Below are positions 4,875 to 63,645 of a stretch of DNA of 64,000 nucleotides, piece by piece. The stretch covers positions 2,294,001 to 2,358,000 of the forward strand of contig JAWMAR010000108.1 of assembly GCA_036785375.1 (NCBI GenBank), in the 5' to 3' direction. The position numbers and the translations under genes were made by a program. Below the pieces are notes generated by a model. It worked only from the letters and a program-made list of their open reading frames with translations. It did no database searches and was not told the origin of the DNA. This stretch comes from Leucoraja ocellata. Lineage: Eukaryota. Positions within the stretch are counted from its first letter, which is position 1, and every line of letters begins with the position of its first letter.

Positions 4875-5190
4875 GACCGCCTCTACCACCCATCGACTCT
4901 ATCTATCTTTCACGCTGCCTCGGGAAAGTAACCAGCATAACCAAGGACCAGTCACACTCCAGTCATTCTCTCTTCTCTTCACACCCACCAGTCAAAAACT
5001 TGAAACCACTTACCATTAGATTCAAGAACTGTTCTTTCCCTGCTATTATCAAATTCTTAAATAGACTTTTTATATACAGAGATGGATTCCCAATCTTCCA
5101 ATCTGCCCTTGCACTTTTTTAAACTGCATTTTCTCTGTAGTTGAAACACTATATTCTGCACTCTCTCTTTTGCACGACCTGATGTACTCC
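4875..5190 (+). mobile_element. Rex1/Babar-type LINE 3' fragment
   Basis: Peptide LPPIDSIYLSRCLGK...TIRFKNCSFPAIIKFLN resembles the Rex1 RT C-terminus seen in other copies here. Confidence 0.7.
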
Positions 5191-5296
5191 AGCATTTGCT
5201 GTTCTTTGTGTCTCCAGTCTCCACCTCATTTAGCTGTCTGCCACTAATCGAAGGATGGACAGCGAGAAATAACGAGACAGTGGAGCAGCTGGAATC

Positions 5297-5980
5297 TGAA
5301 TCTGAAACTGGAGGAATAGCACCTCATATTATGCCTGGTCTGAAGAAGGGTCTCGACCAGAAACATTGCCTATTTCCTTTGCTCCATGTTGCCTCACCCG
5401 CTGAGTTGCTCCAGCATTTTTGTCTACCTTCGTTTTCCAGCATCTGCAGTTCCTTCTTAAACAAATCATATTATGCCTGGGTAGCTCACAGCCCAATGGT
5501 ATGAACATTGGATTCTCCAATTTGAGGTAACCTCTAACTAACAACCCCCAACCACGCCCCCCCCCCCCCACCCCCTCTCCCCCCCCCCCCCACCCCCTCT
5601 CCCCCACACCTCTCTTTCTTCTCTCCCTTCCCTCCCCTTTGCCTCACTTGGACCTTGGACTCCCACATATTTCTCCATCCGCTACTTTCCTTCCTCTGAT
5701 TTCTCAATCCACAAATCTTCAAACATCTCACATCTTTATCCCTTTATTTCTGGCCTTTGCTCCATCCATCAGCCTACCAGAACACCCCCCCCCCCCTCCA
5801 CCACCCCCCCAACTCCACCCGATTACCTGCCGCACATTGTCCTGCCTCTTCCCTTTTCCAGCTTTCATCTTTCACTGCAATCTGTCTGAAGAAAAGTCCT
5901 AACCCGAAACATCAGCTATCCATGTTCTCCAGCGATGCTGCCTGACCCACTGAGGTACTACAGCACTTTGTGTCCTTTTG
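5297..5980 (+). mobile_element. Old Penelope-like element 3' end (GIY-YIG tail plus pLTR)
   Basis: KLEE*HLILCLGSSQPNGMNIGFSNLR* (read across the nested insert) matches the GIY-YIG C-terminus at about 62170-62259; degenerate hammerhead core at 5886-5910. Confidence 0.75.
5339..5465 (+). mobile_element. 127-bp Penelope-derived unit with minimal hammerhead core and 15-bp TSD
   Basis: TCATATTATGCCTGG at 5324-5338 and 5466-5480; CTGAAGA at 5340-5346 and GAAAC at 5360-5364. Confidence 0.8.
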
Positions 5981-11835: not shown

Positions 11836-11970
11836 GCAATTAAAAGTTGGTCATTGGATAGTTTAGAAGTTGCCATTACATTGATGGTTATTTGCACTAC
11901 TTACAGCCAGCCTGCACATTTCCCTTGGAAGGTACATTGTGAGCAGAGGCATGTTCAGGTTGTTCTGTAA

Positions 11971-12176
11971 TGCCCCTGTCCCACTTAGGAAACCTGAACG
12001 AAAACCTCTGGAGACTTTGCGCCCCACCCGGAGGTTGCAGGTGGTTGCCGAAGGTTGCAGGTAGTGGAAGGAGGTAGGGAGACTGACAAAAACCTCCGGG
12101 AACCGCACGGAAACCTTGGGTGGGGCGCAAAGTCTCCAGAGGTTTCCGTTCAGGTTTCCTAAGTGGGGCAGGGGTA
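11971..12176. mobile_element. MITE family A, internally deleted
   Basis: Same TIRs as 1219-1464; flanks TAA/TTA. Confidence 0.85.
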
Positions 12177-12491
12177 TTAGAGTATTCGACCTGGAAAAGG
12201 GATTTAATGGTTGAACAGGGCAGAGAGCAGATCCCAGATTTGGGAGACTGCACTGGAAGTCTAAGTGAAGGATGTGCAAAAGAGGATTGTTGCTCTGTAA
12301 GACTGATGTGGTGGCAGGAGGGAATAGATAGTTGGAGCAATCAATGCAAGCAGTATTCTCTAAGGACTTGTATAAAATCATGAGAAGGAATAGATTGGGT
12401 AGACACACAGGGTCTCTTGCCCAGAGTTGGGGAATCGAGAACCAGAGGACATAGTGGAGGGGAAAAGATTTAATTGGAATCTGAGGGGTAA

Positions 12492-12936: not shown

Positions 12937-14162
12937 TAACTTTTTCACACAAAGGGTGATGGGTGTATGGGTGCCAGAGGAGGTAGTTGAGACAGGGACT
13001 ATTGCAACGTTTAAAAAAACAATTGGACAGGTACATGGATAGGTCAGGTTTGGAGGGATGTGGGCCAAACGCAAGCAGGTGGGCCGTTGGTCAGTGTGGA
13101 CAAGTTGGGCCAAAGGGCCTGTTTCCATGCTTTATCCCTTTATGACTTGAATGGAATTGAGGATGAAGCCCAATAGTCGCACATGAGTGGTCAAAGTGAA
13201 TAAAGAAATCTTCAACGGTTTTTCTCCTGATTCAGATGCTGCACAATTCCCCACATATCCATCCCTCACTTGCCAACAAGCTCAATCTATCAGCACTCAT
13301 TCATATGTTTCACATATAATCCTCCCCACTTTGAACTGCAGCCAGCATCAAACTCACAGCTAGCAACCTGCAGCGTGGCAACTGTTCATCTAACAGGCGC
13401 ATCAGCCAAACTCATTGCACAACAACTAGTGGCATAACTTGCAGGAAAACATCACACTCAAACCAAGGCAACAGGGACTAACTGGTGAACAAAAAGAATG
13501 GGTGACGTTGAGACATCCTGACCCAAAACGTCACCCATCCTTTTTCTCCAGAGATGCTGCCTGACCTGCTGAGTATCTTCAGTATAAACCAGCATCTGCA
13601 GTTCCTTTCCACACAGGAACCAACGGAAGATTGAAAAATGCATCTCCATAATCTAATCCCCATTGGAGAGATGGTACCAGGGTCATGACTCAGTCCATGG
13701 TTACTGACAGGGCTGTATCTACTGAAACTGGGAGTATTTGTGTATCATTTCCCTGTCCCACCTCTCCACGATATTACAGGGCCTTTAGAATGCAAATTTG
13801 CTGATGGTCCAAGCAGATACTTCCACTTATCTGGGATTCCCTAAAACCCAATGACGTCTGGGAATCCCTACAAACCCCAGGTAGTCAACTTGCCAGGAAG
13901 ATGGGAGGGAGCCAGATGAAGATGCACGCAAATCACCAGATGACTGCACTGTCACGTCAGCTTTAGCCAGTGAGTGTAACCTCGAGGATTGTGTAGAGAG
14001 TATCATGGTTTGTACATCGAGTATGTGCACTGCAGTAGTCGTCCAAAGAGTGTGACTGCAGTCTGTAGTCTTCTCTGCTGCAGAAGACTTGAAAGCAGAG
14101 TTTGATAGGCGATATCACAGGAGAAGGGAACATTGGAAACTCTGCCATAGAGCTTGCGTTCA

Positions 14163-16185: not shown

Positions 16186-16220
16186 GGCGATGTTTCGGGT
16201 CGAGACCCTTCTTCAGACCC
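16186..16220 (-). ncRNA. Minimal hammerhead ribozyme motif (Penelope-type)
   Basis: Minus strand reads GGU CUGAAGA A GGGUCUCGACCC GAAA CAUC GCC; stem III palindrome broken. Confidence 0.55.
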
Positions 16221-16412
16221 AGCCAGATCCTATTATGGCCATTTTCATAAAGAGCAACGATATTTGCAGCAAAGCCTTGGAACAACCTGGATCTGAACAT
16301 TTCCATTTTCATTGTAGAAATGTGGCAACAAATATGGGCAGAGTACTGAATTCTCCAGTGTTCACAATGCAGTTTCCAATGAAAGGTCATCTGAGATAAT
16401 GTTGACTTGCTA

Positions 16413-16646
16413 TGCCCCTGTCCCACTTAGGAAACCCGAACGGAAACCTCTAGAGACTTTGTGCCCCACCCAAGGTTTCCGTGCGGTTCCCGGAGGTTCC
16501 CTACCTGCTTCCACTACCTGCAACCTCCGGCAACCACCTGCAACCTCCGGCAACTACCTGCAACCTCCGGGAACCGCACGGAACCCTTGGGTGGGGCGCA
16601 AAGTCTCCAGAGGTTTCTGTTCAGGTTTCCTAAATGGGACAGGGCA
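16413..16646. mobile_element. MITE family A, opposite orientation
   Basis: Same TIRs; flanks CTA/TTA. Confidence 0.85.
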
Positions 16647-16883
16647 TTACTCTCTTTACCTAGAAGTTGAACTCTCTCTGCCTTCAAAATATTCGAAGAC
16701 CCTGCCTTCACTGCCTTTGAGACCGAAAGGATTTTAAACTCATTATATTCTGAGAAAAAAACCCAAATCTCTCTCTTAATTACAACCACTTTTTTTTATA
16801 TAGTGACCCCTCCAGCTGTTGATTCTCGCACAAATGGAAACATCCTCTCCTGATCCATATTATGAAGACTCCTCACATCCTGA

Positions 16884-20838: not shown

Positions 20839-21625
20839 GGCGGCACAGTGGTGCAGCAGTAGAGTTGCAACGCATGCAGCGCTGGAGACCTGGGTTCGAT
20901 TCCAACTATGGGTCTGTCTGTACAGAGTGGTCTCCCCGTGACCACGTGGGCTTTAACATATAACCATATAACCATATAACAATCACAGCACGGAAACAGG
21001 CCATCTCGGCCCTTCTAGTCCGTGCCAAACACTTACTCTTGCCTAGTCCCATCTACCTGCACTCAGACCATAACCCTCCATTCCTTTCCCGTCCATATAC
21101 CTATCCAATTTATTTTTAAATGGTAAAATCGAACCTGCCTCCACCACTTCCACTGGAAGCTCATTCCACACCGCTACCACTCGCTGAGTAAAGAAGTTCC
21201 CCCTCATGTTACCCCTAAACTTTTGTCCCTTAATTCTCAAGTCATGTCCTCTTGTTTGAATCTTCCCTACTCTCAATGGAAAAAGCTTATCCATGTCAAC
21301 GCTGTCTATCCCTCTCATAATTTTAAAGACCTCTATCAAGTCCCCCCTTAACCTTCTGCGCTCCAAAGAATAAAGACCTATCTTGTTCAACCTTTCTCTG
21401 TAACTTAGGTGCTTTCCTCGTAGTAACTTTCCCCGAGATCTTTGGTTTCCTCCCACACTCCAAAGACGTACAGGTTTGCAGGTTAATTGGCTTGGTATAA
21501 TTGTAAATTGTCCCCAGTGTGTGTAGGACAGTGTTAATGTGCTGGGATCGCTGGCCGGTGCAGACTCGGTGGGCCGAATGGCCTGGTACCGCGCTGTATC
21601 TCTAAACTAAAGCTGAACTAAACTA
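20839..21625 (+). mobile_element. HE1-like SINE with antisense CR1 insert
   Basis: SINE halves at 20839-20954 and about 21428-21625. Confidence 0.8.
20956..21412 (-). mobile_element. CR1 subfamily 2, (ATATGGTT)n tail
   Basis: LSYRERLNKIGLYSLERRRLRGDLIEVFK...GRWD*. Confidence 0.88.
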
Positions 21626-21812: not shown

Positions 21813-22025
21813 TAAAATTTGACACAAAGTGTTTGAGTAACTCAGCAGGTCTGGCATAATCGCTGGAGAACATGGACATGTGATATTTCTGGTTGGGACT
21901 CCAACCTGAAGAAGGGTCCTGATCCGAAACGTCACCTATCCATGTTCTCAGAGATGCTGCCTGACCCACTGAGTTACTCTAGCAGTCTGTATCTTTTTTT
22001 GTGAATCTGCAGTTCCTTGTTTCAA
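21813..22025. mobile_element. Palindromic Penelope-derived unit with hammerhead core
   Basis: Minus arm then plus arm; CTGAAGA at 21906-21912 and GAAACGTC at 21926-21933. Confidence 0.7.
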
Positions 22026-22683
22026 ATTCTCTTCCATGTTTTTAATTCTCACTATAGTCGCAGCTCTCCCCAATTCTATCAACTCCTCCTGCCCATTAAT
22101 CCAGTGAGGTGTCTGCTCTTCCAAATGTGGCCTGTTTGCTACTCCCTATTGGTACACTATTGACAATCCCTTCACCTTCCATGCCCTTAGCTCTAGAATT
22201 ACCTCCATAAATGTCTCTGCCTCCTGCTTTCTCCTTTCCGATTCCCCTTAAAATCCACCATTAGGAGCGTCCAGTTGTCGCCTTGTTTGAAAACATGCCT
22301 ACGAACGGGATATTTTCATCGTGGCAGGCTGCAACTAGTGGAATGCCTCAGGGATGGGTGTTGGATCTCTGCTGTTAATAATCCACATCAATCATTTAGA
22401 TCTTCTTCTTATCGAGTCCACACAAAAGATTAGAAGTTGTTCCGCCAGAGCTGAACACACCTCTCGGCATCTGCACAATGGTGCCTGTCTTGCGCTTCTT
22501 GTGCTTCTTGTGCGTGGTAGAGGAAAGATTGGTGGAAGCAGGGCCGCGACGCAAACGCTCTTTCCTTGACCCCAATAATTCACATGAAGTGTTGGGTTTA
22601 GGTTTAAGTTTATTATTGTCGCGTGTATTGAGGTACAGTGCAAAAGGTTTGTTTTGCATGCTGCCGAATCAGATCAGATAATA

Positions 22684-22842
22684 GTAGACACAGAGTGCTG
22701 GAGTAGCTCAGCAGGCCAGGCAGCATCTCAGGTGAACATGGATAAACAACTGTTAGGGCCGGGACTCTTCTTCAGACTGCTGAGATGCTGCCCAACCTGC
22801 TGAGCTACTCCACCACACTGAATCTGGAGTTCCTTGTTTCTA
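22684..22842. mobile_element. Palindromic Penelope-derived unit, 14-bp TSD
   Basis: CAGATCAGATAATA at 22670-22683 and 22843-22856. Confidence 0.8.
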
Positions 22843-22864
22843 CAGATCAGATAATACTATACAT

Positions 22865-30972: not shown

Positions 30973-31142
30973 GTAAGTTATGAGGGACCCCTTGGTCTAG
31001 TAAATCAATAAATGCTTTGCGCCAATGCTAAGTTTTCATCAGGAAATCAGTTTGAGCCTGGTGTAATATGTCACAGAATATAAAACCTCTCTTTAATATT
31101 GTAAATTTCCATAATGTTTAATCTGTTGTTCTGTTTTCTGAG

Positions 31143-31239
31143 GTATCCGTGTATGATCCTGCTGATGATCATTACCAGACCATTGCTCCAGATGCATTTA
31201 ACACCATCTACATCAGCCCAAGGAACTATGGTCATCCAG
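31143..31239 (+). CDS. Candidate 97-nt internal exon
   Basis: Acceptor ctgttgttctgttttctgag, donor CAG|GTACAG; joins the upstream exon in an open frame: NLHSPGIYTKQ|VSVYDPADDHYQTIAPDAFNTIYISPRNYGHP. Confidence 0.5.
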
Positions 31240-31817
31240 GTACAGTATTTAAAGTCCTGTCACACAACATGACTATAATTTTATGTCAAAGCTCAATTAA
31301 TTGGGTTGTTTCAAACTAGATATCATTTTTAATATCTTGATCTTATCAAGTTCTTTGCCTCGACCATGCAAAACCTTGTGGTGTTAGAATCATACAGCAC
31401 AGAAACAGGCCCTTTGGCCCAACTTGCACATGCCAACCAAGATGCCCCAGCTACACTTGTCCAACCTTCCTGTGTTTGGCCCATCCTAACCATGTACCTG
31501 TCCAAAAGCCTTTTTGAGGCAGCGACTCCTGTAGATCCTCCCTTCGATGGTGGGGATATCAGTACCCGTGGTGGTCTGGGCTGTGTACGACACTTTTTGC
31601 AATCTTCTTCATTCCTAGGCGTTTAAGTTGCCAAATTCTAAAGGCATCTCTTTATACTGGAAGATCAACAGGTTCTGGGCAGCCTAAAATGTGTCTTTCA
31701 CCCAGTTGATGATCTTCCAGCAGCACTTGATGTTTGTCCAGTGATGCATCCCTGGGAACAGTCCATAGATCAGGGAACCCTCTGTTATGCAGCAGCTCGG
31801 TGTAAACCTCGACAAGG

Positions 31818-31910
31818 ATGGCATGGTGGCGCAGCGGTAGAGTTGCAACCAAACAGCGCCAGACACGAGTTTGATCCTGACTACGGGTGGTCTTTGTACG
31901 GAATTCGTAT
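31818..31910 (+). mobile_element. HE1-like SINE 5' part
   Basis: tRNA-like head, interrupted by the following element. Confidence 0.7.
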
Positions 31911-31915
31911 ATATC

Positions 31916-32390
31916 CTACCTGCCAACTGGTCCGATTTTATTGTATTTGTTCCAACTTTTTCAGTTAAAAAAGTGTGGGGGGAAGGGGACTCCATTCAGC
32001 GACCACCGGCCGCGGGACCACACAGCAGTACCGACTCCACGCAGCGACTTTCCCGACCACACAGCGGCTTTCCCGACTTCACATAGCGGCTTTACTGACT
32101 CCACTCTTGCGGACTCAATCAGCACGGCTTGTTTACTCAGCCCCGCCTCCGGGGTTTTATTCTCCAGCAGGTGCCAGAATGGGCATTATCTTTATGGTGA
32201 ACGGCAGGCGAGAAGACCAATCTGCTGATCTCACGATTTTTTAAACCTTCATAACTTTTCTCATATTTCATTGATCGGAACAAAACTTGGTGGCTTGGAG
32301 CGGGGGAGAACGGTGATTAATGTGGCAAAAAAACCCTAGCGATATATGGTATCGTTTTTGCGCACATTTAATTACAACGCAGTGGTCAAG
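31916..32390. mobile_element. Probable non-autonomous DNA element truncated by the gap
   Basis: Starts CCTACCTGCCAAC (hAT-like terminus); internal acagcggctttcccgac repeats; 32205-32365 is an inverted homolog of about 34330-34500. Confidence 0.45.
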
Positions 32391-32553
32391 NNNNNNNNNN
32401 NNNNNNNNNNNNNNNNNNNNNNNNNNNNNNNNNNNNNNNNNNNNNNNNNNNNNNNNNNNNNNNNNNNNNNNNNNNNNNNNNNNNNNNNNNNNNNNNNNNN
32501 NNNNNNNNNNNNNNNNNNNNNNNNNNNNNNNNNNNNNNNNNNNNNNNNNNNNN
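32391..32553. other. Assembly gap (N run)
   Basis: Seen directly. Confidence 1.
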
Positions 32554-33436
32554 CAAGGAAAAGCTATGTTTTGCCTGCTATCCAGTCAGATCTCTTCAAA
32601 TTTGTCAGGTAGAGGAATTCCCATTAAGAAATCCATTCATGCTAGTAACAGTGCTGGAAAAAATATTGAACAATTTACACAAAAAATTATAAAACCTTAC
32701 ATTCAGGGGGGGGAAAGAGATAAATGTGGTTTACACATATTTCAAATATGACTCTTCACTTTCAATATACTTTGCATCACTTAGCAATCTTGGATATCCA
32801 TTTTGCTTAGGCATTGGACCATCTGCCAATTCTTGAGTGGCTAAGGAAGGTATAAGCCTCCTCAGGGCCCAGAGGGGTGATTTATGAGTGAAGCCAGGGG
32901 GATATGTGTGAGATCCTAAATAAATGTTTCTCGTCAGTACGCACCAGGGAGAGGAACATGGATAGGACAGGTTTGGAGGGATATGGACCAAATGCAAGCA
33001 GGTGGGACTAGTGTAGCTGGGACATGTTGGTTGGTGTGGGCAAGTTGGGCCTTGCCTTGCTTCTCTTGTTCGTGCCACCATAAAACTTGGATAGGAAAGG
33101 CACAGAAGAAAACGGTTCCAATGCAGGCAAATGGGATTATTGCAGATTGGCACCGTGGTTGGCATGGACTAAGTGGGCCATTTCTGTGCTGGACAATATT
33201 ATGAACAACAGATTGGGACGAGAGAACACAAGGATGCTGAAATTAATATTCAAACAAGATATCTACTGAACCGGGAAAGGCCAATCCAATGCTGCCCGTC
33301 TTATTTATTGGGTAATGGTGGGGTGCAAAGGCGACGCATGCAGTTCAAAAGGAGAAAACCTCATACTCAAATACCACCTACAGAATGAATATTTCTATAA
33401 GAAATTCTGGGCTAACAACTATATCAGGATGTACAA

Positions 33437-33925
33437 GTGGTGGCAGAGTGGCGCAGCAGGAAAGTTGCTGCCTTACAGCGCCAGAGACTGGGTTCGATCC
33501 TGACTACGGGTACTGTCTGTACAGTGTTTGATCATTCTCCCTGTGACCGCACGTGCTCCTGTTTCTTCCCATATTCCAAAGATGTGCAAATTTGTAGGTT
33601 GACAAAAAATGCTGGAGTAACTCAGCGGGACAGGCATGACAAGCATCTCTGGAGAGAAGGAATGGGTGACGTTTAGGGTCCTGACCCATTCCTTCTCTCC
33701 AGAGATGCTGCCTGTCCCGCTGAGTTACTCCAGCACTTTGTCTCTATCTTCAGAGTAAACCAGCATCTGCAGTACCTTCCCACACATTAAGTCTGTTGGT
33801 CAATTAACTTCTGTAAATTGCCCCCGGTGTGTAGGATAGGACTAGTGTAAGGGATCATGGCTGGTCGGCATGGACTCGGTGGGCCAAAGGACCTGTTTCT
33901 ACATTATATCTCTGAACTGAACTAA
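33437..33925 (+). mobile_element. HE1-like SINE containing a palindromic Penelope-derived unit (33601-33786)
   Basis: Near-perfect inverted arms tgctggagtaactcagcgggacaggca / tgcctgtcccgctgagttactccagca. Confidence 0.8.
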
Positions 33926-34265
33926 ATGAGACGAATTGTAAGCAATGTACGCATGTTATAATTATACGTCTATAAACCACATGCCATCTTTTACAGGGTC
34001 GAGGATAACCCGTTTGAGGATCCATCAGGATCCCAGTTGCAACACAGGAGAACAAATTGCACTGGGGATGCTTGTTGGGGCCGTTACAAGCTCTTTGCTG
34101 AGATCACTCATGTGGGCACCGTGCTGGTTCTAAAACAATGTTACTGTCAAGGCAAGAAACTGTGCATTGCTGCATAAACACAGAGCACTTTGGTTATACG
34201 AACACTTTGCTGTTGGCATCATTAGAAATGAAATAATTAGGCAGCAAATTGGTTTCAAACCTAAA

Positions 34266-35337
34266 TCTATCTTCTATACATAACTAAAACTCTGATCTTA
34301 CTCTATCTTCTGGTTTGGCGGTCTTTCTATTTGAGCACAAACGGTTTGCGATAGCGCTATGATTTTTCACCAGTTCACTCACCGTTCTCCTATGCTGCGA
34401 GTGCACCAAGTTGTGTTCCGATCGGTTGAATGTCGTAAAAGTTAGCGAGGTTTCAAAATCTTAAAAACCGTACGTGCGCAGATCGATCTCTTCTCCTGCC
34501 AGTCAGCGTCACGCGGATTAGTCTCTACCCCTGTCACTCCCTGGGACAGTCCGCCCCATCGCGTCTTTACTGGAGTTGAGGTTGGCCAGCGGAGGTTTCC
34601 ACAATTTTCGGAGGGACCCGAAGCAGTCCAGCCCAGCCCCAAGCAGCCCAGCCCCAAGCAGCACAGCCCCAAAGCAGCCCGGCCCCAAGCAGCCCGGCTC
34701 CAAGCAGCCCGGCCCCAAGCAGCACGGCCCCAAGCAGCACGGCCCCAAGCAGCCCAGCCCCAAGCAGCCTGGCATCAGAAACCCAACCCAGGCCAGCCCA
34801 GCGTGGGAGACCCAGCCCAGCCCTGTCAGAGACCAAGCCCAGCCCTGAATCGGTGACCCAACCCAGCCCAGAGTCGATGTCGCCAAATGGAAAGTGAAGA
34901 CTCTGATCCCGGCGGAGGAGAACGACCAACGCCTGCTGTGAGTCCCCATCGCACTGCCAATTCGAGCCACTACCCCTCTGGTCCCCCTTCGCTGGTTCCG
35001 CCCCCCCTCCCCCGTGATGCCCCCCTCTCCCCCATGGCTCTTCCCCCATCTTTTCTCCGAGCTCACTCCCCCCCAACACACCCCTCTCCCCCTACAGCTA
35101 CCCACCCCCCCCCCCCCTCCGCTCACACACCCCTCTCCCCAACACAACCCCTCCACCCACACACCCCTCCATCCCACAAGCCACCCCTGCCCACACCCCC
35201 CCCCCCCCCCCCGCCCACACACACACACACACACACACACCCCCGCTCACACACACACTCACACATTGTGGATAGGGTTGCGTTGGGAGACCAGGCCTCC
35301 CTTGTGACTGGGACCCAACCAGTCCCACTTAGTCAAG
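34266..35337 (+). mobile_element. Non-autonomous Helitron
   Basis: Inserted between A and T with no TSD; 5' TCTAT...ACTAAAA; 3' hairpin TGGGAC..GTCCCA at 35309-35326 followed by CAAG (CTAG variant); internal minisatellite and CA repeat. Confidence 0.75.
34620..34770. repeat. 15-bp minisatellite (ccccaagcagcccgg)n inside the Helitron
   Basis: About 9 contiguous units, no spacers. Confidence 0.9.
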
Positions 35338-35953
35338 TAACAACTAAATTTGATCCACAATAGGAAACGCTATTTTTACTGATTAGAACAGCACATGCGA
35401 CTGGTAATTTTTCTTTTACACTACACACAAAATCAACTTCATCCCCTTCTCCTAAACCAAGACATTTTTCTTGAGATACTTTGTGTCACATTATGTAAAA
35501 TTGTTTTACCAATGTATTTCAAACCTTCTTAGTTTGTGAAGGCTGTGGCCTAACCAACTTCTGACTAAGAAACTTAATGATTTCTTCCAGCATTTGAGCC
35601 TGACACTGAGGAGCTTGGGAATTTTCACTTGGATGTTCCTGTTACTAAGCCTGTGTGATCTCTGCCTAGCAATTCTCCATATTGGGATGGCTGAGTTTGG
35701 TAATTCAGCATTGTGAGTGGCCACAGATATAAATGTTTGACTCTCATCCAGAGTTACATCATTACTTACTGAGCTCCCTTTGGAACGCGTCCAGCTTTGA
35801 ACGTACAGCACTCAGGCTTTGTTTTGCTTGTTCCACACAAGAGTTGAATCATAACGGTTTGGACATAAACCAGATGTCCACCAGTACAGATGTAAACCCA
35901 GTAAGACAAGTTGGACATTCAAACGTAGGGAATTACTTGAATTTGTCCCAATA

Positions 35954-36460
35954 GTTCAAGTTCAAGTTCAAGTGAGTTTATTGTCATGTGTCCCTGATAG
36001 GACAATGAAATTCTTGCTTTGCTTCAGCACACAGAACATAGTAGGCATTTACTACAAAACAGATCAGTGTGTCCATATACCATTGTATAAATACACACAC
36101 ACATGAATCAATAGACTGTTAAAGTGCGCAAAACAGATAATGGGTTATTAATGATCAGAGTTTTGTCCGAGCCAGGTTTAATAGCCTGATGGCTGTGGGG
36201 AAGTAGCTATTCCTGAACCTGGTTGTTGCAGTCTTCAGGCTCCTGTAGCGTCTACCTGAAGGTAGCAGGGAGATGAGTGTGTGGCCAGGATGGTTTGGGT
36301 CCTTGATGATACTGCCAGCCTTTTTAAGGCAGCGACTGCGATAAATCCCCTCGATGGAAGGAAGGTCAGAGCCGATGATGGACTGGGCAGTGTTTACTAC
36401 TTTTTGTAATCTCTTCCTCTCCAGGGCGCTCAAGTTGCCGAACCAAGCCACGATGCAACC
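35954..36460 (-). mobile_element. Rex1/Babar LINE 3' fragment
   Basis: AWFGNLSALERKRLQKVV...LPSGRRYRSL...FPTAIRLLN; (TTGAAC)n tail. Confidence 0.88.
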
Positions 36461-36785
36461 TTTCTTTTAGTTTATGTTCATAAGTTATAGGAGAAGAATG
36501 AGGCCATTTGGCCCATCACGTCTACTCCCCCTTTCAATCGTGACTGATCTATCTTTCCCTCTCAACCCCATTCTCCTGTCTTGATGTAGGAGGGGTGGGG
36601 TTTAAGCCTGCAATATCTCTGGCCTGCTTGCTGATTGCACTCTCCAATCTCCAGAGTTCATCTTGCCCCAGTCGGCACTAGATTTCTAGAACTACACCTC
36701 CTAAGGGTGCTAAGTCATTGACAGAAAAACATGAAGCTTAAAAGTATGATTTTCTTTTGTAGTTCATTGAAATGCTTCTGCATCT

Positions 36786-37320
36786 TTAGTTTAGAGATAC
36801 AATGTGGAAACATGCCCCGCGGCCTAGCGAAACCATGTCGACCAGCGATCCCAGCACAGTAACACTATCCTACACGCACTGGGGACAATTTTACATGTCT
36901 TTGGAGTGTGGATGGAAACTGGAGCTGTTGAGCTTCTGCTGTTGGAATAACCAAAGTCACACGCCGTGATTAAGATCCAAATACTTTATTAACGATACAG
37001 CATAGGTAACTTCATCTTAGCACGTTACTCTAAAAGTGAGAGAGAAAGGGCAGGGAGGCTTTCTGTTAAACTAGTGGGCCTAGCTACAAAGTATGACTCA
37101 TGACATGAGTCACTGATCTACAGAGCACCCAGAGAAAACCCACGCAGGTCACGGGGAGAATGTGCAGACTCCATACAGACAAGAGTCAAGAGTCAAGAGA
37201 GTTTTATCATCATGTGTCCCAGATAGGACAGTGAAATTCTTACTTGCTGAGCACCTGTAGCCAGGATTGAACCCGGGTCTCTGGCGCTGTAAGGCAGCAA
37301 CTCTATCGCTGCACCAACAT
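36786..37320 (-). mobile_element. HE1-like SINE carrying a solo LTR and a Rex1-type tail insert
   Basis: SINE sequence is contiguous once 36926-37122 and about 37181-37248 are removed. Confidence 0.75.
36926..37122 (-). mobile_element. Solo LTR (Gypsy-like), 197 bp
   Basis: TG...CA termini, 4-bp TSD GAGC (36922-25, 37123-26), AATAAA on the minus strand. Confidence 0.8.
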
Positions 37321-37647
37321 GCTGTCCTAAGGAAAGGTCACAGAGTTCTGAATGAAATTCTCCTTCCCTATGCCCTGGGAATCTTGCAGGCAAAATCAAG
37401 GAAAATATTTCCTAATTATTCCAGAACAAGATAGTGACACCTTCCATAATGGAACAATGATGATTTTTTTGTTTTCTTTGGATGATCTACAAACAAGGGA
37501 ATGGTTGAAAATCTCTTTAGAAATATTCATGCAGAATGAGAATTTAGTGAAATCAGTTTAGTGTCAATGTCACATGTTACTAGGCTGGTCTTTAACATTT
37601 ATGTTGGCAAAAATCTATTTCCAAGTTCTTGCAAATTACCCTAATAA

Positions 37648-37980
37648 TGCCCCTGTCCCACTAATGCCCCTGTCCCACTTAGGAAACATGAACGGAAACC
37701 TCCGGAGACTTTGTGCCCCACCCAAGGTTTCCGTGCGTTTCCTGGAGGTTGCAGGTGGTTGCCGGAGGTTGCAGGTAGTTGAAGCAGGTGGGGAGACTGA
37801 CAAAAACCTCCGGGAACTTCCGGGAAATGCATGGGTGGGGCGCAAAGTCTCCAGAGGTTTCTGTTCAGGTTTCCTAAGTGGGACAGGGGCATGAGGAACC
37901 TGAACGGAAACCTCTGGAGACTTTGCGCCCCACCCAAGGTTTCCGTGCGGTTCCCGGAGGTTTTCGTCGGTCTCCCTAAT
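37648..37980. mobile_element. MITE family A nested in the TIR of a related, one-ended copy
   Basis: Inner copy 37665-37891 splits the outer TIR at cac|TTA|gga. Confidence 0.85.
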
Positions 37981-39371
37981 GGTCGAAAGTGGTCTCCGCT
38001 TCTTCTATGTTGGGTAAAATTGGGTAAGATATAAATGAAAGCACAATGTCATTATTACCTTCCAAAGTGTATATCGGAGAAAGCTTAAATGCCATTGATC
38101 AATTAATGCTCTTCAGTATTAGGATTGTCCAGACAAGTTATTGTGAAGTGAGATCTTCTGTGGAAAGTACATATACGTTCATTACTATTTTTATGACATT
38201 GATTGGTTATTTTTACTTCGCAGTCAACCACAGAAACCCGATCAGTTAATTTTCCATGATCCAGTCCTATCGATCGTACTGTAAAGTCCTTTGGCCAAAC
38301 AAATCTCCAGCCACAAGAGTGGTAGCACGACAATGCTTAAATCTAGGTCTGTTCCAGTAGCCCCCCTTCAGCTGCTTTTGTTCAGGTGCTTATTAATGGA
38401 AGCAGATATTTAGGCACTCGTAGGAATGAAAATGATTATTTCGGTATAATTCTGGATATTTAAAAAAAAATCTTTCTCCCCGACACTTACCCTGCATTTT
38501 CTGTTTGTTTGAATTGATTTTTATGGTTTAAGTATGTCATATTAAAATTAATAAAGCTCCCCCAGTAGCAAGTTATCAAATGTGCTGTTCCAGACACACA
38601 TGAATGATAAATGAATGAGTGTAATCTTAAATTACTAGCCTAAAGGTGAAACACTTAGCATGGTCCTTTTGCTGCAGTTGTTTATGCGGAAGTACACTGA
38701 TTTTACATTAACTGAGTTGAGTTTAGTTAGTATAATACAAATGTAACTTAATGTCAACAAAATGGGTAAGTGTTTTTCAATTCCTGACCCATGTTGGTCC
38801 ATGTTACTTTGTACCATGCTCCCGTGAATTAGAGTCACGTAACAATACGAGGGATTATTATTAAATAAAGGACAGATGGAGCAAAAGTTTAGTTTTGTCA
38901 TTTATTTTCCACTTTAAGAAACGCTTCCATAGAATTACCTAATTGAAGTTCATACGTGAAATTATTATTTTCATGACGCAAAATTGGTCATTGAAGCATT
39001 TTCAGTCCTTCAGGAGCTGACCGAATTTCCTTTCTATTTTCAGTTTGCCAACATTTTGCATTTCAGAACAGGCTGCAACCTCAGACATGTAGGTTGGATA
39101 TAGCTTATGTTCTCATGTAGTAAATAGGGCCAGAAGTTGGCTGGGTTCCCTCTATCCCCCCCTAAGAACATGCCCGATCAAATTCTTGACCCTAAGCCAG
39201 AACTTTCCTGCCTGATTCTCAGACCACTTGACTCACCTGCTCAGTGTTGAGCTAAAAACAACACTGAGCCACAAAGACCCAGGAATCGCTGTGGTGTAAA
39301 CGTGACCTGTCCTGACATGTGTTGGAGCCATACGTCATTGAATAGATGCCATTTTAGGCTGAGTGACCATT

Positions 39372-43478: not shown

Positions 43479-44400
43479 ACACAATAAGCTGGAGTAACAC
43501 AGCGGGTCAGGCAGCATCTCTGGAGAAAAGGAATAGGTGACGTTTCGGGTCGAGACCCTTCTTCAGACTGAGAGTTCGGGGAAAGGGAAACAAGAGATAT
43601 ACACGGTGATATAGTGAGATATAGAACAAATGAATGAAAGATATGCTAAAGTAACGATAACCATATAACCATATAACCATATAACAATTACAGCACGGAA
43701 ACAGGCCATCTCGACCCTTCTAGTCTGTGCCGAACACATAATCTCCCCTAGTCCCATATACCTGCGCTCAGACCATAACCCTCCATTTCCTTCCCATCCA
43801 TATAACTATCCAATTTATTTTTAAATGATAAAAACGAACCTGCCTCCACCACCTTCACTGGAAGCTCATTCCACACAGCTACCACTCTCTGAGTAAAGAA
43901 GTTCCCCCTCATGTTACCCCTAAACTTCAGTCCCTTAATTCTCATGTCATGTCCCCTTGTTTGAATCTTCCCTACTCTCAGTGGGAAAAGCTTTTCCACG
44001 TCAACTCTGTCTATCCCTCTCATCATTTTAAAAACCTCTATCAAGTCCCCCCTTAACCTTCTGCGCTCCAAAGAATAAAGCCCTAACTTGTTCAACCTTT
44101 CTCTGTAACTTAGTTGCTGAAACCCAGGCAACATTCTAGTAAATCTCCTCTGCACTCTCTCTATTTTGTTGACATCCTTCCTATAATTAGGCGACCAAAA
44201 TTGTACACCATACTCCAGAATTGGCCTCACCAATGCCTTGTACAATTTTAACATTACATCCCAACTTCTATACTTAATGCTCTGATTTATAAAGGCCAGC
44301 ACACCAAAAGCTTTCTTTACCATGATGATAAAGGATGTTGGCCATTGTTAGCTGTGTTCCAGGTGAAAACAAGTACAGACAATGAGACTCAACCAGACGA
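43479..44400 (-). mobile_element. Penelope pLTR with intact hammerhead core, split by CR1 subfamily 2 (43660-44323)
   Basis: Core at 43539-43566; ACATTGA at both flanks; CR1 ORF2 segment of 191 aa with ATATGGTT tail. Confidence 0.75.
43536..43570 (-). ncRNA. Minimal type-I hammerhead ribozyme motif
   Basis: Minus strand reads AGU CUGAAGA A GGGU CUCG ACCC GAAA CG UC ACC; palindromic ACGU stem III and GUC cleavage triplet. Confidence 0.7.
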
Positions 44401-46300: not shown

Positions 46301-46593
46301 TTAAATAATTTTATTTATTAAAATTAACTAGTAACCAAAAGCATGCTGGTTGCATTGTATTGACACTTACAAACTTGTGTTCACAAACTACATTTAAATC
46401 TCTGAAGACGATTCTACTGATGGATGTTTCTATCAGTGCCAGCAATATTCTGGTACATAGCTGATCGTTTTTCATGAATGACCCAGGATGGTGCATACCA
46501 AAGATCTTTGATCTTTGGTGCATACTAAATAACAGCAAGACATTTCACAGAGAGGTGGAGCATTTCAAGTATGTCAACTATGTCCAAACACAA

Positions 46594-46682
46594 AAGATAG
46601 ACACACAGTGCTGGAGTGACTCAGTGGGTCAGGCAGCCTATCTTTGGTAAAAACCAACATCTGCAGTTCTTTGTTTCTACAT
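46594..46682. mobile_element. Short two-armed Penelope-derived unit, 15-bp TSD
   Basis: TATGTCCAAA(C/T)ACAA at 46579-93 and 46683-97. Confidence 0.7.
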
Positions 46683-47159
46683 TATGTCCAAATACAACCT
46701 TGCCCAACGTCTGTAAATGCACTTATCCTAAAGGGATGTCACTGTCACTGATTGAGGCAATATATATATATATATATATGTTACATATATAATTATTGTA
46801 AATGTAAACACAAAGGAATTGGTTTAAATTCATATAATTTAAAGGAAAGATTTACCAATCTGGAGTGAGCAAGTTGTGTTTGAAGGAAGGTTGGACAGTC
46901 TAGGCTTGTATCTACTGGAGTTAAAAGAACAGTGAGTAGTGATTTAATTTAAACATACACGTTCCTGAGGGTTCTTGACAGGGTGGATGTGAAGTGGTAG
47001 CTTCTTTTTCTGAGAGAATCTAGAATTCAAGAGGTCACTGTTTAAAAACAAGGAATCGCCCATTTAAATGGAGGTTTAGGACCCCTCTACCTCAGGGGAT
47101 TGTGCTCTTTGGCACTTCCGCAAAGCGTGGTGGAAGCGGAGTCTGTGAATCTTTCTAAG

Positions 47160-48059: not shown

Positions 48060-50934
48060 TACCTAGGAACATGGATAAGTGATATAGGTGGTGGAACGTT
48101 AATAACGCATATGGGGGAGTTTGTATAGTTACACCAAATCACCGTATCTAATGGGTGGTCTACTAACCCTCCGGCGCGTGTCCGGTACGAATCCACCTCA
48201 CCTCCCTTCACCGGAGAAGATACCGGGGAGAGAATGGGGCAAATGACCGGGGGCCCGACGGGGCGGGGAGGTGGTGAGATAGGCGAGCTAGGCGCCAAAC
48301 GCCGCGGGGAGGCCGCGGTGGAAACGGTCGCTGATAGTGAAGCAGCAGGACCGGGAGTGGGAGGGTTAACAAAACACGTGACATCTGTCGTTGGGCTGGG
48401 GATCCCTTGCAATGTTCCTTAAGTTGAGCAGGTCCAGGTGTACGTCCGATTTTGCAAGGTGAGACCGCTCCATTAGTTGTTTTGCGCTTCGGAACAGCGC
48501 GTTCGGCGAGTCCGTTGGACTGCGGGAACACAGGGCTGCTGGTAATATGTCGGAAGTCCCCAAAGTTTTTGAAAGACTGGCTGGTGAACTGTCTGCTGTT
48601 GTCAGACAGAAGACGTGCAGGGGAGCCGTGCCGATTGTTAACTTCTCGATGACCGCTTCAGAAGTAATGGTTTGGAGTAAGTCGATGTCCAACCAACCCG
48701 ATTAAGAGTCAACAAGAACCAGATATTGTTTCCCATGCCATTCGAATGTCAGTAGATAATGTGGACCACGGGAGAGGAGGTGAGGCAGTAAAGGCTGCTT
48801 CTGCTGATGTGGTGTCAGGCTTTTGCAGACGGCACAAACTTTGTTTTTTTCGTGTATGTATTTGGTCAAACCAGGTCAGTAAAACATGCTTTGTGCCCAT
48901 TGTAAGGTTGCCTCCACGCCAGGGTGGCCCCTGTGGACGGTGTCGACGTACTTGTCCCGGAGGACAGCTGGGACAACTGCCTTGCGGCCCTTGACTATAA
49001 TCCCATCCTGTAACACCAGTTCGTCACGAACCAGGAAGTATGGGTGGATTGCGAGCGGGGTGCTGCGGTGTTTATCCCGTCAGCCACACCGGATGTCTGC
49101 GGACAGCAATTGTAAAGTCTCATCAGCAGCCGTATGCTCTGCCGGGCTGCTTAGGCAATCAGTAGGAGCATATGATACCTTCATTACTGAGAACTGGTCC
49201 TGTTCAGAGAGTTGGTGTTCGTTGGTTTTGCGTGGGGCCCTTGATAGCGTGTCAGCTATGTGCATGTCCTTGCCTTCCTTATAGACCATGTTGAAATCAA
49301 ATCGCGGCAGCCGCATCTGCATTCGTTGTAGACGGGGCTGGGGCAGTGTGGATGGGTTTGTTCAAAATAGTGACCAACGGCCACTTTCTATAGTCACAGA
49401 CTTCCCAAAAATAAAGTCTTTGAATATCGTGCAGGCAAAAACCACTGCGAGCAATTATTTTTCGATCTGAGCGTAACGTTGTTCAGTGTCAGTTAGTGTG
49501 TGAGAGGCATATGAAACAAGCTTGCAGTCGCCATCAGTAGTGGTCTGCGGGCAAGCAGCGCCTAGTCCGTACTGGGACGCATCGCTAGTGAACGTTACTG
49601 GTAACTCCAAAGAAATGTAGACGAGAGTAGGTGCCCTAGCCAGCTGCAATTTGAGAGTGTCAAAAGCTCTTTGGTGCTGCGGATACGAGGACTATGCAGC
49701 GTCCTTGTGTGTCAGTTCTCGCAGGGGGGCAGGTATGTCGCTCAGGTTGGGAATAAATTTCCCCAGGTAGTTACCATTACAAGGAACCTTCGTAGACTCG
49801 CAACGTCAGTAGGAACCAGCATTTCGCTGCAGTTTTTGATGGGTCTGGTCTGAGACCATCACTTGTGAAAATCTGCCCGATGTAAGTAACTTCTGGGACT
49901 CGAAACTTGCACTTCAGGGGATTGAGTTTGAGCTGAATGTCTTTGGCACGGTCTAGTACTTTCTTCAGATTGGCGTCGTGCTCAGCCAAGTCATGCCTGT
50001 AGATGAGAATGTCATCAACAATGATGGCGAATGGATACTCAGCAAACAATTGTTCCATCGTGCGCTGGAAAACTTCACTGGTGGAGTTGATGCCAAAGGG
50101 CATTCTCAGAAATTTGTATAGGCCAAAGGGGGTGCCGAACGTAGTAAGATTGGACGAGCCTGGGTCCAGTGGAATCTGCCAAAACGAGCTTTTGGAATCC
50201 AGAACAGAGAATACTGATGGGTTGCCTATTTGAGCAGCAACTTCCTCAACTGTTCGCATAGGGTAGTGCGGGCGTTTGATAGCAGTGTTAAGATCTCTCG
50301 GGTTTATGCAGATATGGATCTCCTCCTTGTTTTTCTTTGTTGCGACCACCATGGTGGAAACCCAGTCAGATGAGTCTGTAACTTCAGCAATGACACCCAT
50401 GGAGACCATCGGATCGACAACAATGTGGTATTTGAGGGGCAACTTGCCAAGCTCGTCCTTAAACAAATCGTTGTATTGAGAGAGTACTTGTTGAGTGGGC
50501 CAGTCAGCGAGAAAGAGTTGATGGACTACGCGGCCAAAGCATACCAGGCCTAGATCGTGGCATGCATTGATACCGAGAAAAGTCTCTGAATCCCCCTTGA
50601 CAATATAAAACTTTAAGGTATCGGGTTGCTCATTTATGGTGCACTTTAAATTTGTTTGCCCTAGTGGGTGTAAAACATCGCCCCCATAGGCCTGAAGCAT
50701 GGTCGAGGCCTTTTCAATACGTTCAGCATTATGAATTTTTTTCAACTCTGGTAACGAGATGACGTCGCATTTTGCCCCCGTATCAACCTTAGCGATCAAA
50801 GGCCTGTTATTCACAAACATGGGTACCTCAGGGTCGAGTTGCTCATTAGACGAAGGGAGGAGAGAATGAATGGCAGAGCTGGTATCTGTACTTTCTGAGA
50901 GTGGAGTGGTAATGGCAAGCCAGGCTCTAAGCAT
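48060..50934 (-). pseudogene. pol: Gypsy pol remnant (protease, RT, RNase H, integrase)
   Basis: VDTGAKCDV (protease); LDSKSSFWQI, MPFGI, IVDDILI (RT); SDASQYGLGA, YAQIEK (RNase H); PQSNGLAERAV (integrase); multiple frameshifts. Confidence 0.9.
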
Positions 50935-50989
50935 TCGTTATCAGCAAGTTCATGTTGTAACAGGTGCAGGCTCGTCCTTGGAGCAGGCT

Positions 50990-51794
50990 GAGTCTCACGG
51001 GAACGGCAGCATCTAGCAAAGTGGTTTAATTTATTGCAGAAATTACAGTTTTTACCATAAGCAACACAGAACTGCCGACCCGTAGCATGAAAATAGTTGC
51101 AATTTTGACATCGAACAGACCCTCTCCAGGCTGCCAGGCAGGAGAGGGCTGGGAATGGGTGTTACGAGAGGAGGTGTCTGTAATATTGACACTATACTGT
51201 GAACGGTGACCGGAGGGCACAGACTCAGTGTGCGAAGAGGTTATCTCAGCAATCCGACAGGCATGCTCTGCTTGATTAAGGGTTAGGTCAGTATGACGAT
51301 GAAGTTCACTCCTTAACTTGCTATCAAGCATACCTCCAACACGCTTGTCACGGATGAGTTTATCGCACAGATCACGAAACTGACAGCGTGCAGCCATGTG
51401 TTTCAAGCCGCTAATAAAAACGTTTGATCGGTTCATCAATCTGTTGCATATAAGCATAAAACTTGGTACGTTCAATAATGTAGTTCGAGGGCTGGTCGCA
51501 CAACTGCCCTCAAACTTTGCAAGCAAAACGGCAGGATCATCAATCGTCTCTGCAGGCACTAGGACCTGTCCATTAGCATCCAAAACGGCAGGCTCAAATG
51601 TAACATTGTCGGCACGATTCATTACCTCAGGTCCCACTAGGTTGAGCAATACAAAACCACGCACATCGGGGGGGGGGGTCGTTGCGATGAACGACGCAAA
51701 CATAGTGAGTGTAGTCACGCTCGAAAAGATGCCAGCGTTCAGCAATGTCAGAGTCAAAGATCAGAGGACTAGGACGGCGAGATGAATTTGCCAT
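50990..51794 (-). pseudogene. gag: Gypsy gag remnant
   Basis: LIRDKRVGGM motif; after a frameshift, a double zinc knuckle CQNCNYFH...C and CNFCNKLNHFARCC. Confidence 0.85.
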
Positions 51795-55415: not shown

Positions 55416-55778
55416 TAGGAGCAAAAATTATCCCTGCACGTACCGTACCATCCCAAGCCCCAAATCAATGTTTTTTGCTTCAATGAATTTTACTGGCTTC
55501 ACCTTGGTTAGCTGAAGGAGTATGGATCTAGAGGGTCGAGCTTCAATATCAGAGCCAGATCATTCAGAAAACAAATATAGGCAACATTTCTATAAGCAAC
55601 AAATGATAGAAAGTTGACATTCTCTTCAGCAAGTGAAAGTTGCTGCCAAATCAGTTTTGTGCATTTTGAACCTGAGATTGATGGATTTGTAGTAACTATA
55701 GACATCTGGAGAGATAGGACGTCAGAATGAATGAATGAATCAGCCATGATTTCAATAAATGAGGTGGCAACTCTAGAG

Positions 55779-56007
55779 ATAGAAACAAGGAATGCAGATG
55801 CTGGATTACAAAAACATGACACAAATTGCTGTAGTAACTCAGCGGGTCAGGCAGCATCCCAGGCAAATACCGATAGGTGGCGTTTTGGATCAGGACACTT
55901 CTTCAGACTTCAGACAGGTCAGGTCCCAACCCTAAATGTGATCTATCCATGTTCTTCAGGAATACTGCCTGACCCGCTGAGTTACTCCAGCATTTTGAGT
56001 CTTTTTT
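55779..56007. mobile_element. Palindromic Penelope-derived unit, 14-bp TSD
   Basis: TGGCAACTCTAGAG (55765-78) / TGGCAACTCATGAG (56008-21). Confidence 0.75.
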
Positions 56008-56663
56008 TGGCAACTCATGAGCTTTCCTCTGTCTCTATGTCCTATTTCCTAAACAGAGAAGGGAGGTGTGCTTCAATATGGTGGATTGTCTCAAACAGTA
56101 TTTACAAAAAGCTTTTGGAATAACAACCATCTCTTGCAGCAGAATCTTCAGTATTGCTTAAAACATATTGAATTCTGGAACGGCAAATTTCCAATGCAGT
56201 TATTTTCTTTGAACATTCATCAGAAGTAAATAAATATATTGCTAATAAGTGGCACTAAAACTCCCCGGTAATAATAACAATAAAAAATAGTTCAGTAATC
56301 ATTCTGGGACGTTGCAGATTGTCACTCTTGACTGCACAGTAATGTAAAAACTCAGTTGAAAGGAAGCTCCTGGCATTTGAACAAAACATGACAGAGTTGC
56401 CTTTCAACCCCAGCTTAAGGCATGTAATATAAATATTTAATTTTAACAGTCTTTTATCTGGGCATTGTTAAATTATTCACAGTGGTTACTCCGTCCCATT
56501 GCGTCTAATCACTATCGATGTTTGCAGAAAGCCTGTCAAGGAACAAGTCTTAGTTTGCCGGGAATATTAACAAAAGCAGGAAGGCTGATGCTTTACTCAG
56601 CATGCAGTCCCCTCTCCACTGAGCACCTTTAGCAGAGTGAGCATGATGTTATACAGTTTAGAC

Positions 56664-61673: not shown

Positions 61674-61873
61674 NNNNNNNNNNNNNNNNNNNNNNNNNNN
61701 NNNNNNNNNNNNNNNNNNNNNNNNNNNNNNNNNNNNNNNNNNNNNNNNNNNNNNNNNNNNNNNNNNNNNNNNNNNNNNNNNNNNNNNNNNNNNNNNNNNN
61801 NNNNNNNNNNNNNNNNNNNNNNNNNNNNNNNNNNNNNNNNNNNNNNNNNNNNNNNNNNNNNNNNNNNNNNNNN
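61674..61873. other. Assembly gap (200 N)
   Basis: Seen directly. Confidence 1.
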
Positions 61874-62525
61874 ACACCTGTTGCTATTCCTCCACCCTCG
61901 ACTCTGTCCAGGGACCCCGACAGTCCTTTCAGGTTAGGCAGAGGTTCACTTGCACCTCCTCCAACCTCATCTACTGTATCCGTTGTTCAAGATGTGGACT
62001 CTTATACATCGACGAGACCAAACGCAGACTGGGCGATCGTTTCACGGACCACCTTAGCTCAGCCCGCCTGAACCAACCTGACCTCCCGGTTGCTGGACAC
62101 TTTAATTCTCCTTCCCATTCCTACACAGACCTTTCTGTCCTCGGTCTCCTCCATTTTCAAAGTGAGAATAAACGCAAATTGGAGAAAGAGCATCTCATAT
62201 TTCGCTTGGGCAGCTTGCAGCCCAGTGGTATGAATATTGATTTCTCTCACCTCAGGTAGCCCCAGCATTTCCTCTCTCTCTATCCCTCCCCCACCCAAGT
62301 CGCACTAGCTTCTCATTTTCACCCTACAAACAGCTAACAATGGCCTGTTCCCTTTAGCGTTACTTTTTTGCATATCTTGCATTCATTATTCTTTATCTCT
62401 CCACATCACTGTCTATATCTCTCATTTCCCTTATCCCTAACCAGTCTGAAGAAGGATCTTGACCCGAAAGGTCACTTTCCTTCTCTCCAGGGAACGCTGC
62501 CTGACCCGCTGAGTTACTCCATCTT
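61874..62525 (+). mobile_element. Penelope-like retroelement 3' part: GIY-YIG endonuclease plus pLTR
   Basis: FTCTSSNLIYCIRCSRCGLLYIDETKRRLGDRFTDH...GSLQPSGMN* (stop at 62259); hammerhead core at 62446-62473. Confidence 0.92.
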
Positions 62526-62837
62526 ATTGTTTCATTCTTAGCAGTCATCAATGCCCTGTGATCATCTCCCCTCAAGATCCTCTGTTGAAGATACCTAAAC
62601 CTTCTTGGTTTACACCATTGATATGAATGCAGTTTGAAAAATTGTGCATTCTGATCAGTACATAAGGTGTCACAGGTGACACAAAAATTGATGGAAAAGC
62701 AAGTTGTGATGACATAGGAAGACTCCCAGATATTCTGTAGATTGTAAGGGGAAGGGGACCCAGTATCAATCTATTTACCTACTGAAGACAAGTCCAAAAA
62801 TTACCCACTTATCAATGGTTACAATCACCTATCCATG

Positions 62838-63302: not shown

Positions 63303-63645
63303 TGAGAAACTGCAGATGCTGGTTTACACCAAAGATAGACACAAAATGCTGAACTGAGCGATGTTTAAGAAGGAACTGCAGATGCTGGAAAATCGAAGGT
63401 AGACAAAAATGCTGGAGGAACTCAGCGCGTGCGGTAGCATCTCTGGATAAAATGAATCGGTGAGGTTTCGGGTCGAGACACTTCTTCAGACACGTTTCGG
63501 GTTGAGATCTTTCTTTAGATTCACGTTTTGGGTCAAGACCCTACTCCAGTCTGAAGAAGGGTCTCGACCTGAAACGTCACTCATTCCTTTTATCCAGAGA
63601 TGCTGCTTGTCCTGCTGAGTTACTCCACCATTCTGTGTCTATTTT
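63303..63645. mobile_element. Compound palindromic Penelope-derived unit with tandem hammerhead cores
   Basis: Three minus-strand core copies at 63465-63542 (the third truncated) and one plus-strand core at 63551-63578. Confidence 0.75.

Follow-up and report, generated by a model that had tools for sequence, protein, structure and literature searches.

The transposition cycle of Penelope-like elements (PLEs) and the role of the hammerhead within them are still open (PMC8557442, PMC11167929). Short and solo pLTR ends of endonuclease-positive Neptune PLEs carry a minimal type I hammerhead near the 3' end and an optional tail of 30-40 nt (PMC4209133, PMC8557442, PMC3846280, PMC11167929), and solo hammerheads tied to truncated PLEs have already been described (PMC4209133). 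Adjacent inverted copies, target-site duplications (TSDs) of about 9-15 bp and very short insertions were also reported for Neptune PLEs (PMC4209133, PMC8557442, PMC3846280, PMC11167929, and the accessible part of 10.1101/2022.05.23.493040); the same part of the last source gives a median of 128 bp for insertions of active PLEs in Chlamydomonas. For an Anolis PLE assayed in vitro, priming was internal at two sites that bound the tail, uncut RNA was used, both target strands were extended, and RNA shortened at its 5' end gave shorter products (PMC11167929). For Penelope of Drosophila virilis, an intron extends up to the 5' end of helix I (PMC4209133), and the start site was placed 46 + 75 nt upstream of the helix I edge (available section of PMC2377424).

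The locus described here is a solo unit of 127 bp (5339-5465, + strand) in a window of 64,000 nt of skate DNA, the window being the whole stretch that was analysed. It resembles the Neptune PLE ends above in its hammerhead, its tail and the TSDs, inverted copies and very short insertions of its relatives, and differs from the truncated PLEs of the literature consulted in having relatives whose 5' ends are not spread out but gather at the helix I edge. Chlamys-N and MRC1, non-autonomous PLE families, are comparable in that their 3' end is common with an autonomous partner and they are moved in trans; those are families of their own, often in head-to-tail arrays (all as given in partly accessible sources), whereas the skate unit lacks any sequence of its own and belongs to no established short-only lineage. 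Animal non-LTR retrozymes likewise have a type I hammerhead, a relation to pLTRs and longer TSDs when these are present, but form tandem repeats of 150-450 bp, give rise to circular RNAs and mostly have canonical hammerheads (PMC7229834; 10.64898/2026.07.22.740005, in the part available), unlike the solo skate unit, whose hammerhead is minimal, with a 2-bp helix I in place of the canonical 6 bp and a minimal helix III. The hammerhead-bearing SINE-like elements of Schistosoma are also short and reverse transcribed, but have a polymerase III promoter and tandem copies (reviewed in PMC6765202); a search of the skate unit gave no A or B box. On balance this is a known kind of element, and the 5' end pile-up is a modest, testable twist.

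The unit comprises the 3' module of a probably Neptune-type PLE, from the helix I edge of the hammerhead through the whole tail, followed by about 2 additional A. By direct sequence comparison, the left TSD (5324-5338, +) and the right TSD (5466-5480, +) were identical at 15/15 positions and enclosed 127 bp. As the last G of the left repeat (G5338) is also the element's own base, possibly a 1-nt microhomology with its first base, the unit measures 127-128 bp, with a TSD of 14-15 bp. Exact repeats 100-200 nt downstream were found for only 5 of 62,312 non-simple 15-mers in the window (the true TSD counted among them), and in a tolerant TSD search, random placements reached the score of the TSD in 0/293 cases. 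With the unit and one repeat removed, the site aligned without gaps to the GIY-YIG end of a long copy in the window (61874-62259), and contigs of other PLE copies built from sequencing reads omitted about 150 nt at the position of the unit. A second complete hammerhead in tandem was absent from 5324-5480. The original prediction, a perfect 15-bp TSD around a discrete insertion of PLE origin in the GIY-YIG tail of an older Penelope copy rather than decay debris, was borne out by the TSD and the gap-free empty site, the nesting being direct and the TSD length being refined as above. Its further idea, that the short unit transposed on its own, gains nothing from the TSD: any short PLE retrocopy gets one, and SINE and retrocopy are not separated by it.

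A partial-tandem overlap with a spliced upstream copy was considered as an origin of the 15-mer and rejected, as the unit and the host end belong to different subfamilies (67%); both 15-mers also carry identical non-majority bases, which opposes the overlap reading. Single-depth contigs from organisms C and G (n = 3 orthologous contigs) included the left flank and 20-26 nt of the unit, against a bridge threshold of 31 nt, which suggests that the insertion is old and shared in these organisms. No empty orthologous allele was seen among the read contigs.

The host is the C-terminal GIY-YIG coding remnant of an earlier, putatively Neptune-type PLE (5292-5530, +). It is split by the unit, and has its stop codon at 5528-5530 and a donor-like AG/GT at 5526/5527. 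Its pyrimidine-rich 3' UTR and own worn hammerhead end follow (5531-5980, +; core at 5886), the latter tail-less and of another subfamily than the unit. The reference long copy (61874-62530, +) consists of a GIY-YIG end, a 189-nt UTR between AG/GT and a pyrimidine tract with CAG, and the same hammerhead module; the unit was 69% identical to this copy and 67% identical to the hammerhead end of the host. The direct nesting and the separate subfamily of the host indicate that the host is probably the older of the two, and comparison with these ends points to a unit that carries no sequence foreign to the PLE end. The GIY-YIG tail in the window matched RT-endonuclease proteins of rays and skates (E 1e-50; 59-74% identity among the top matches), and the Pfam GIY-YIG match was below the cut-off (E 0.042). 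A cysteine linker before GIY-YIG marks Neptune and Nematis (PMC8557442, in its accessible part). The element was provisionally assigned to the Neptune clade because relatives of the host ORF share this linker, rather than from a tree. In both ORF-bearing copies the whole 3' UTR (62256-62444 and 5527-5884) is intron-like, running from the donor-like AG/GT to an acceptor-like tract before the hammerhead, and the ray protein P0006 turns to foreign sequence at the donor-like AG/GT. An assembly gap of 200 N (61674-61873) lies directly upstream of the long copy.

A minimal type I hammerhead was read at 5338-5369 (+) against the description of minimal hammerheads in PMC4209133. It comprises a 2-bp helix I (5338-5339 paired with 5368-5369), the core (5340-5346), an extra A (5347), helix II (5348-5351/5356-5359) and GAAA (5360-5363). 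Under the usual numbering convention, self-cleavage would be expected after 5367, so that the unit extends 29 nt before the expected cut site and 98 nt beyond it. The unit is thus headed by the hammerhead as predicted, its core lying at 5340-5363 and its start at the 5' edge of helix I. A5359 breaks the G10.1-C11.1 pair and A5365 breaks the helix III palindrome, positions at which the majority reads C (79%) and G (65%) by word depth in run X1. Because the copy differs from the majority by about 5 substitutions and 2 small deletions and has broken conserved pairs, it is probably old and inactive, with two damaging substitutions in the ribozyme, and it shows no sign of function. Across 15 window copies, 81% of hammerhead cells were paired; no compensatory change was found in 7 pairs over these copies, and covariation was not above shuffles. 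Pairing without compensatory change is expected of neutrally decaying copies.

The hammerhead was not detected by Rfam at E up to 1, and the core pattern gave 0 matches in metagenome, genome and viral collections. A second pattern gave 14 loci and was rejected as chance, as homology ended at the 21-22-nt pattern itself. The unit was called non-coding in the original prediction but is only putatively so: the ORF start of the Anolis PLE lies in the region equivalent to the unit (PMC11167929), and several window copies have an ATG frame 3' of the hammerhead. When the first 120 residues of 169 proteins were compared with the ATG frame, there was no convincing match except P0021, in a different frame, and no close full-length partner was in the set.

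A search of the window with the unit (nhmmer) gave 25 matches, and 5' ends were placed by eye for 24, the duplicated 3' fragment at 63355 and small blastn-only pieces being excluded; the copies used were 63-85% identical to the unit. Relative to the core C, 12 of the 24 copies or arms began at -4 to +2, a 7-nt span, 6 further upstream (-9 to about -570) and 6 internally (+8 to +50). Twelve starts in 7 nt were matched by 0/100,000 uniform draws. T occupied -1 in 8 of the 12 clustered copies, all 8 with G at -2 (p about 6e-6), and A occupied -3 in 3/8, which is chance level; copy 43453 was excluded from the -2/-3 count as its core C is changed. The 5' ends of the PLE copies in the window are strongly non-random, and the end is sharp because G at -2 is kept while -3 is free. 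Three landmarks coincide there: the helix I edge, an acceptor-like tract with CAG, and an initiator-like TCAGT, by which transcription would start at A(-3), at a distance of one base from the end that is observed. In the literature searched, which was mostly open-access main text, no description of 5' ends gathered at the helix I edge was found.

The 3' ends of window copies fell into two classes, near +88 or +124 from the core. The optional tail of about 35 nt between them has approximate limits of 5429-5463 (+), with a read-depth step and loose ends at 5420, 5431 and 5463; the tail of the Anolis PLE lies between two internal start sites of reverse transcription (PMC11167929). Upstream of the 5' end, the pyrimidine fraction was 0.37-0.67 in the 10 scored short copies vs. 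0.74-0.85 in 5/5 long copies. Likeness to the long-copy UTR was found for 0/12 short copies by a test that missed 1/5 true long copies (5886). An adjacent TSD was clear in 1 and weak in 2 of the 8 short copies searched.

A tree of 23 window copies was used to compare short (n = 12) and long (n = 5) labels, which needed 4 changes vs. a shuffled mean of 4.6 (194/500 shuffles as low) in a weak tree with starred branches 0/20. The 127-bp unit grouped with two other short copies (93/92), and this group of three had no long member. Each of the three sequence types of the window included the short form, and in two of the types long members accompanied it. By this comparison, short and UTR-bearing long copies appear interleaved overall, at low power, and the subfamily of the unit, in which all 3 members from the window are short, still allows a SINE-like option. 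The original prediction had named random 5' ends together with interleaving of short and full-length copies as the mark of simple truncation; the non-random ends speak for its claim, and the interleaving, in a weak tree, against it.

Four sequencing runs (three DNA, one single-cell RNA) were compared with 5190-5545 at 80% likeness, with 31,000-39,000 contigs per DNA run. Word depth of the hammerhead was about 17, 7 and 9 times that of the GIY-YIG tail in the three DNA runs, ratios that are not copy number; the host tail is diverged. Loose ends at 5338 numbered 520-643 contigs in these runs, the plurality ending in CATCA (the long form), and many flanks are taken as unrelated because agreement at 5338 was only 0.34-0.35; both long-form and unrelated flanks occur upstream of 5338. 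Some contigs rejoined the 3' part of the unit to 5338-5344, with scattered back-joints. In the single-cell RNA run, 4,432 reads extended upstream of 5338 (agreement 0.56, mostly pyrimidine-rich UTR), the hammerhead/GIY-YIG tail ratio was about 15, like DNA, and neither a pile of read starts or ends nor an RNA 5' end at the helix I edge was seen in this library, which is ill suited to finding starts. The RNA reads look like read-through of genomic PLE copies and are uninformative on the start site.

The best reading of the sequence evidence is that the enzymes of a Neptune-clade PLE, its reverse transcriptase and its GIY-YIG endonuclease, produced the unit as a short retrocopy, internally primed and ending at a fixed 5' point, which is old and by now inert (probability about 0.6). 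The TSD, the gap-free empty site, the 5' clustering, the short copies without the long-copy tract and the interleaving all point to it, and the unit has what Neptune PLE 3'-end retrocopies have, namely homology to the end of a GIY-YIG copy, a minimal hammerhead and the optional 30-40-nt tail. Insertion was at a staggered cut in the earlier PLE copy, as the TSD of 14-15 bp shows, the cut being the work of the GIY-YIG endonuclease in this reading. Reverse transcription would have started internally where the tail ends, some 125 nt 3' of the hammerhead, as the two 3'-end classes and the Anolis element suggest. The template was RNA uncut by the ribozyme, since the unit spans the cut site; the sharp 5' end and intact cut site are a fossil record of the template. 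The cDNA would have run as far as one fixed base, the G that forms the 5' edge of helix I, where ends are seen to cluster, and the 5' cluster points to one base as either RNA start or fixed stop. Tentatively, and at somewhat below even odds, the template RNA itself may begin at the helix I G, which would make the unit a run-off, strong-stop-like cDNA of ordinary pLTR transcripts: a pLTR-started transcript would have its priming site about 90-125 nt from its 5' end and yield run-off units, and two such priming events on both strands would yield short inverted pairs. Within this reading, the template could instead be a longer RNA with a fixed barrier at the helix I G; the RNA end seems the likelier of the two, although a start exactly at the helix I edge is made less likely because the D. 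virilis start lies upstream of it. A stall on the folded ribozyme was rejected, as it would be expected to leave ends on the 3' side of the ribozyme, not at its 5' edge, although 5 copies or inverted arms do begin at +8 to +13. Under the retrocopy reading, short units would arise anew from each PLE subfamily as dead ends.

A self-propagating SINE-like family, in line with the SINE-like parasite of the original prediction, would have an internal promoter in the 127-nt unit, transcription from short copies and re-insertion by PLE enzymes. It is unlikely, though self-propagation, while unproven, is still an option for the unit's own subfamily, 3/3 short in the window and grouped as above. The unit does have the fixed 5' and 3' ends with TSD of a SINE, the sharp 5' end is common to copies, and the depth excess of the hammerhead, which is not copy number, fits such a family; the D. 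virilis promoter is internal (PMC2377424, in the section available), and Chlamydomonas has non-autonomous PLE families (partly accessible source). Against this stand the occurrence of the short form in every one of the three sequence types, with long members also in two, the absence of anything foreign to the PLE end in the unit, and the long-form flank as plurality upstream of 5338, in contigs that are not assignable to subfamily; the consensus A and B boxes of RNA polymerase III gave 0 matches at up to 1 mismatch. A wider form of the idea holds that Neptune PLE RNA starts at the helix I edge, that priming near this start yields strong-stop-like cDNAs of 90 and 127 nt which integrate massively, and that short copies, re-transcribed via an internal promoter, have given rise in cartilaginous fishes to a hammerhead-headed SINE class that propagates itself by means of PLE enzymes; it is slightly more doubtful again. 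Re-amplification of short copies, if it occurs, would give vertebrates a SINE-like class that relies on PLE enzymes, and could plausibly be a stage between pLTR and retrozyme. The retrozyme-like option of the original prediction was not upheld: a non-LTR retrozyme monomer copied from self-cut or circular RNA is very improbable for a single, non-tandem copy with neither end at the cut site, both ends at PLE landmarks, a minimal rather than canonical hammerhead and 0 compensatory changes in 7 pairs over 15 copies, even if PLE pLTRs have been argued to be the source of retrozymes, of which solo monomers occur (10.64898/2026.07.22.740005, in the part available), and some contigs rejoin the unit's 3' part to its start.

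The position of the 5' end could also reflect splicing: a spliced or chimeric RNA would be the template, and the start of the unit would coincide with a 3' splice site, made up of a pyrimidine tract and CAG with TCTGAAG after it. The tract and CAG lie directly before the unit's first base in 4 copies, both window ORF ends finish in the donor-like AG/GT past which the annotated protein P0006 runs into foreign sequence, the G at -2 is also compatible with an exon end, and the D. virilis intron ends at the same place (PMC4209133). We consider splicing improbable nonetheless: the 12 short copies had no common leader (25/300 random sets scored as high), 11 of them had no likeness to the ORF end and one was marginal (4/200 shuffles, a single-test value), no more than about 4 extra nt separate target and unit at 5340 and 9642, the 15 contig joints listed (of 104) did not include a joint of this kind, and protein searches for spliced read-through peptides, a weak test, gave 1 match and then none. 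Plain random 5' truncation, with clustering as an artefact of homology that fades upstream of a conserved hammerhead, is marginally less probable still. PLE copies are known to be heavily 5'-truncated (PMC4209133, PMC8557442, and 10.1101/2022.05.23.493040 in its accessible part), UTRs differ among subfamilies, and ends were set by eye in copies 63-85% identical to the unit; yet the short copies lack even the pyrimidine richness found in all 5 long copies, the TSD fixes the 5' end at 5340, and G is retained at -2 while -3 is free. The unit is best classed, on these comparisons, as a short PLE retrocopy.

Pairs of short PLE ends, inverted head-to-head, were found at 21821-22021, 22670-22856, 33583-33785, 46579-46692, 55765-56016 and 13490-13613, and TSDs of inverted loci measured 14 bp (22.7 kb), 10 bp (46.6 kb) and 9 bp (55.9 kb). 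At 63362-63645, an inverted pair has two extra stacked hammerhead-core fragments between its arms (minus strand), with ends within 1-2 nt of the expected cut and one start at the helix I edge; the fragments might have come about when reverse transcription switched to pieces of self-cut RNA as template, or through slippage at a microhomology of 3 nt. The stretch 63362-63489 (minus strand) is apparently chimeric, with the hammerhead of one sequence type and the 3' part and tail of the type of the 127-bp unit.

The window is rich in repeats; among the 19 of its 71 long ORFs to which Pfam was applied, a single reverse transcriptase was recognised and no host gene. A weak CPEB3-ribozyme-like Rfam match at 22522-22584 (minus strand; 25 bits vs. 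a cut-off of 35) is probably chance. Related long inverted-repeat (MITE-like) elements, 78-97% alike in parts, lie at 37837-37931, 16218-16650, 11967-12177 and 1217-1466, and a weak microRNA-like Rfam match at 37.8 kb stems from them. A UTR-bearing PLE end at 43480-44380 (minus strand) is itself split by a 3' fragment (43660-44320), presumably CR1-like, that is 93% like 20957-21413. The reverse transcriptase is of LINE type, a 386-aa ORF at 49777-51760 (minus strand; Pfam RVT_1, E 2.6e-20) that adjoins an ORF of 244 aa.
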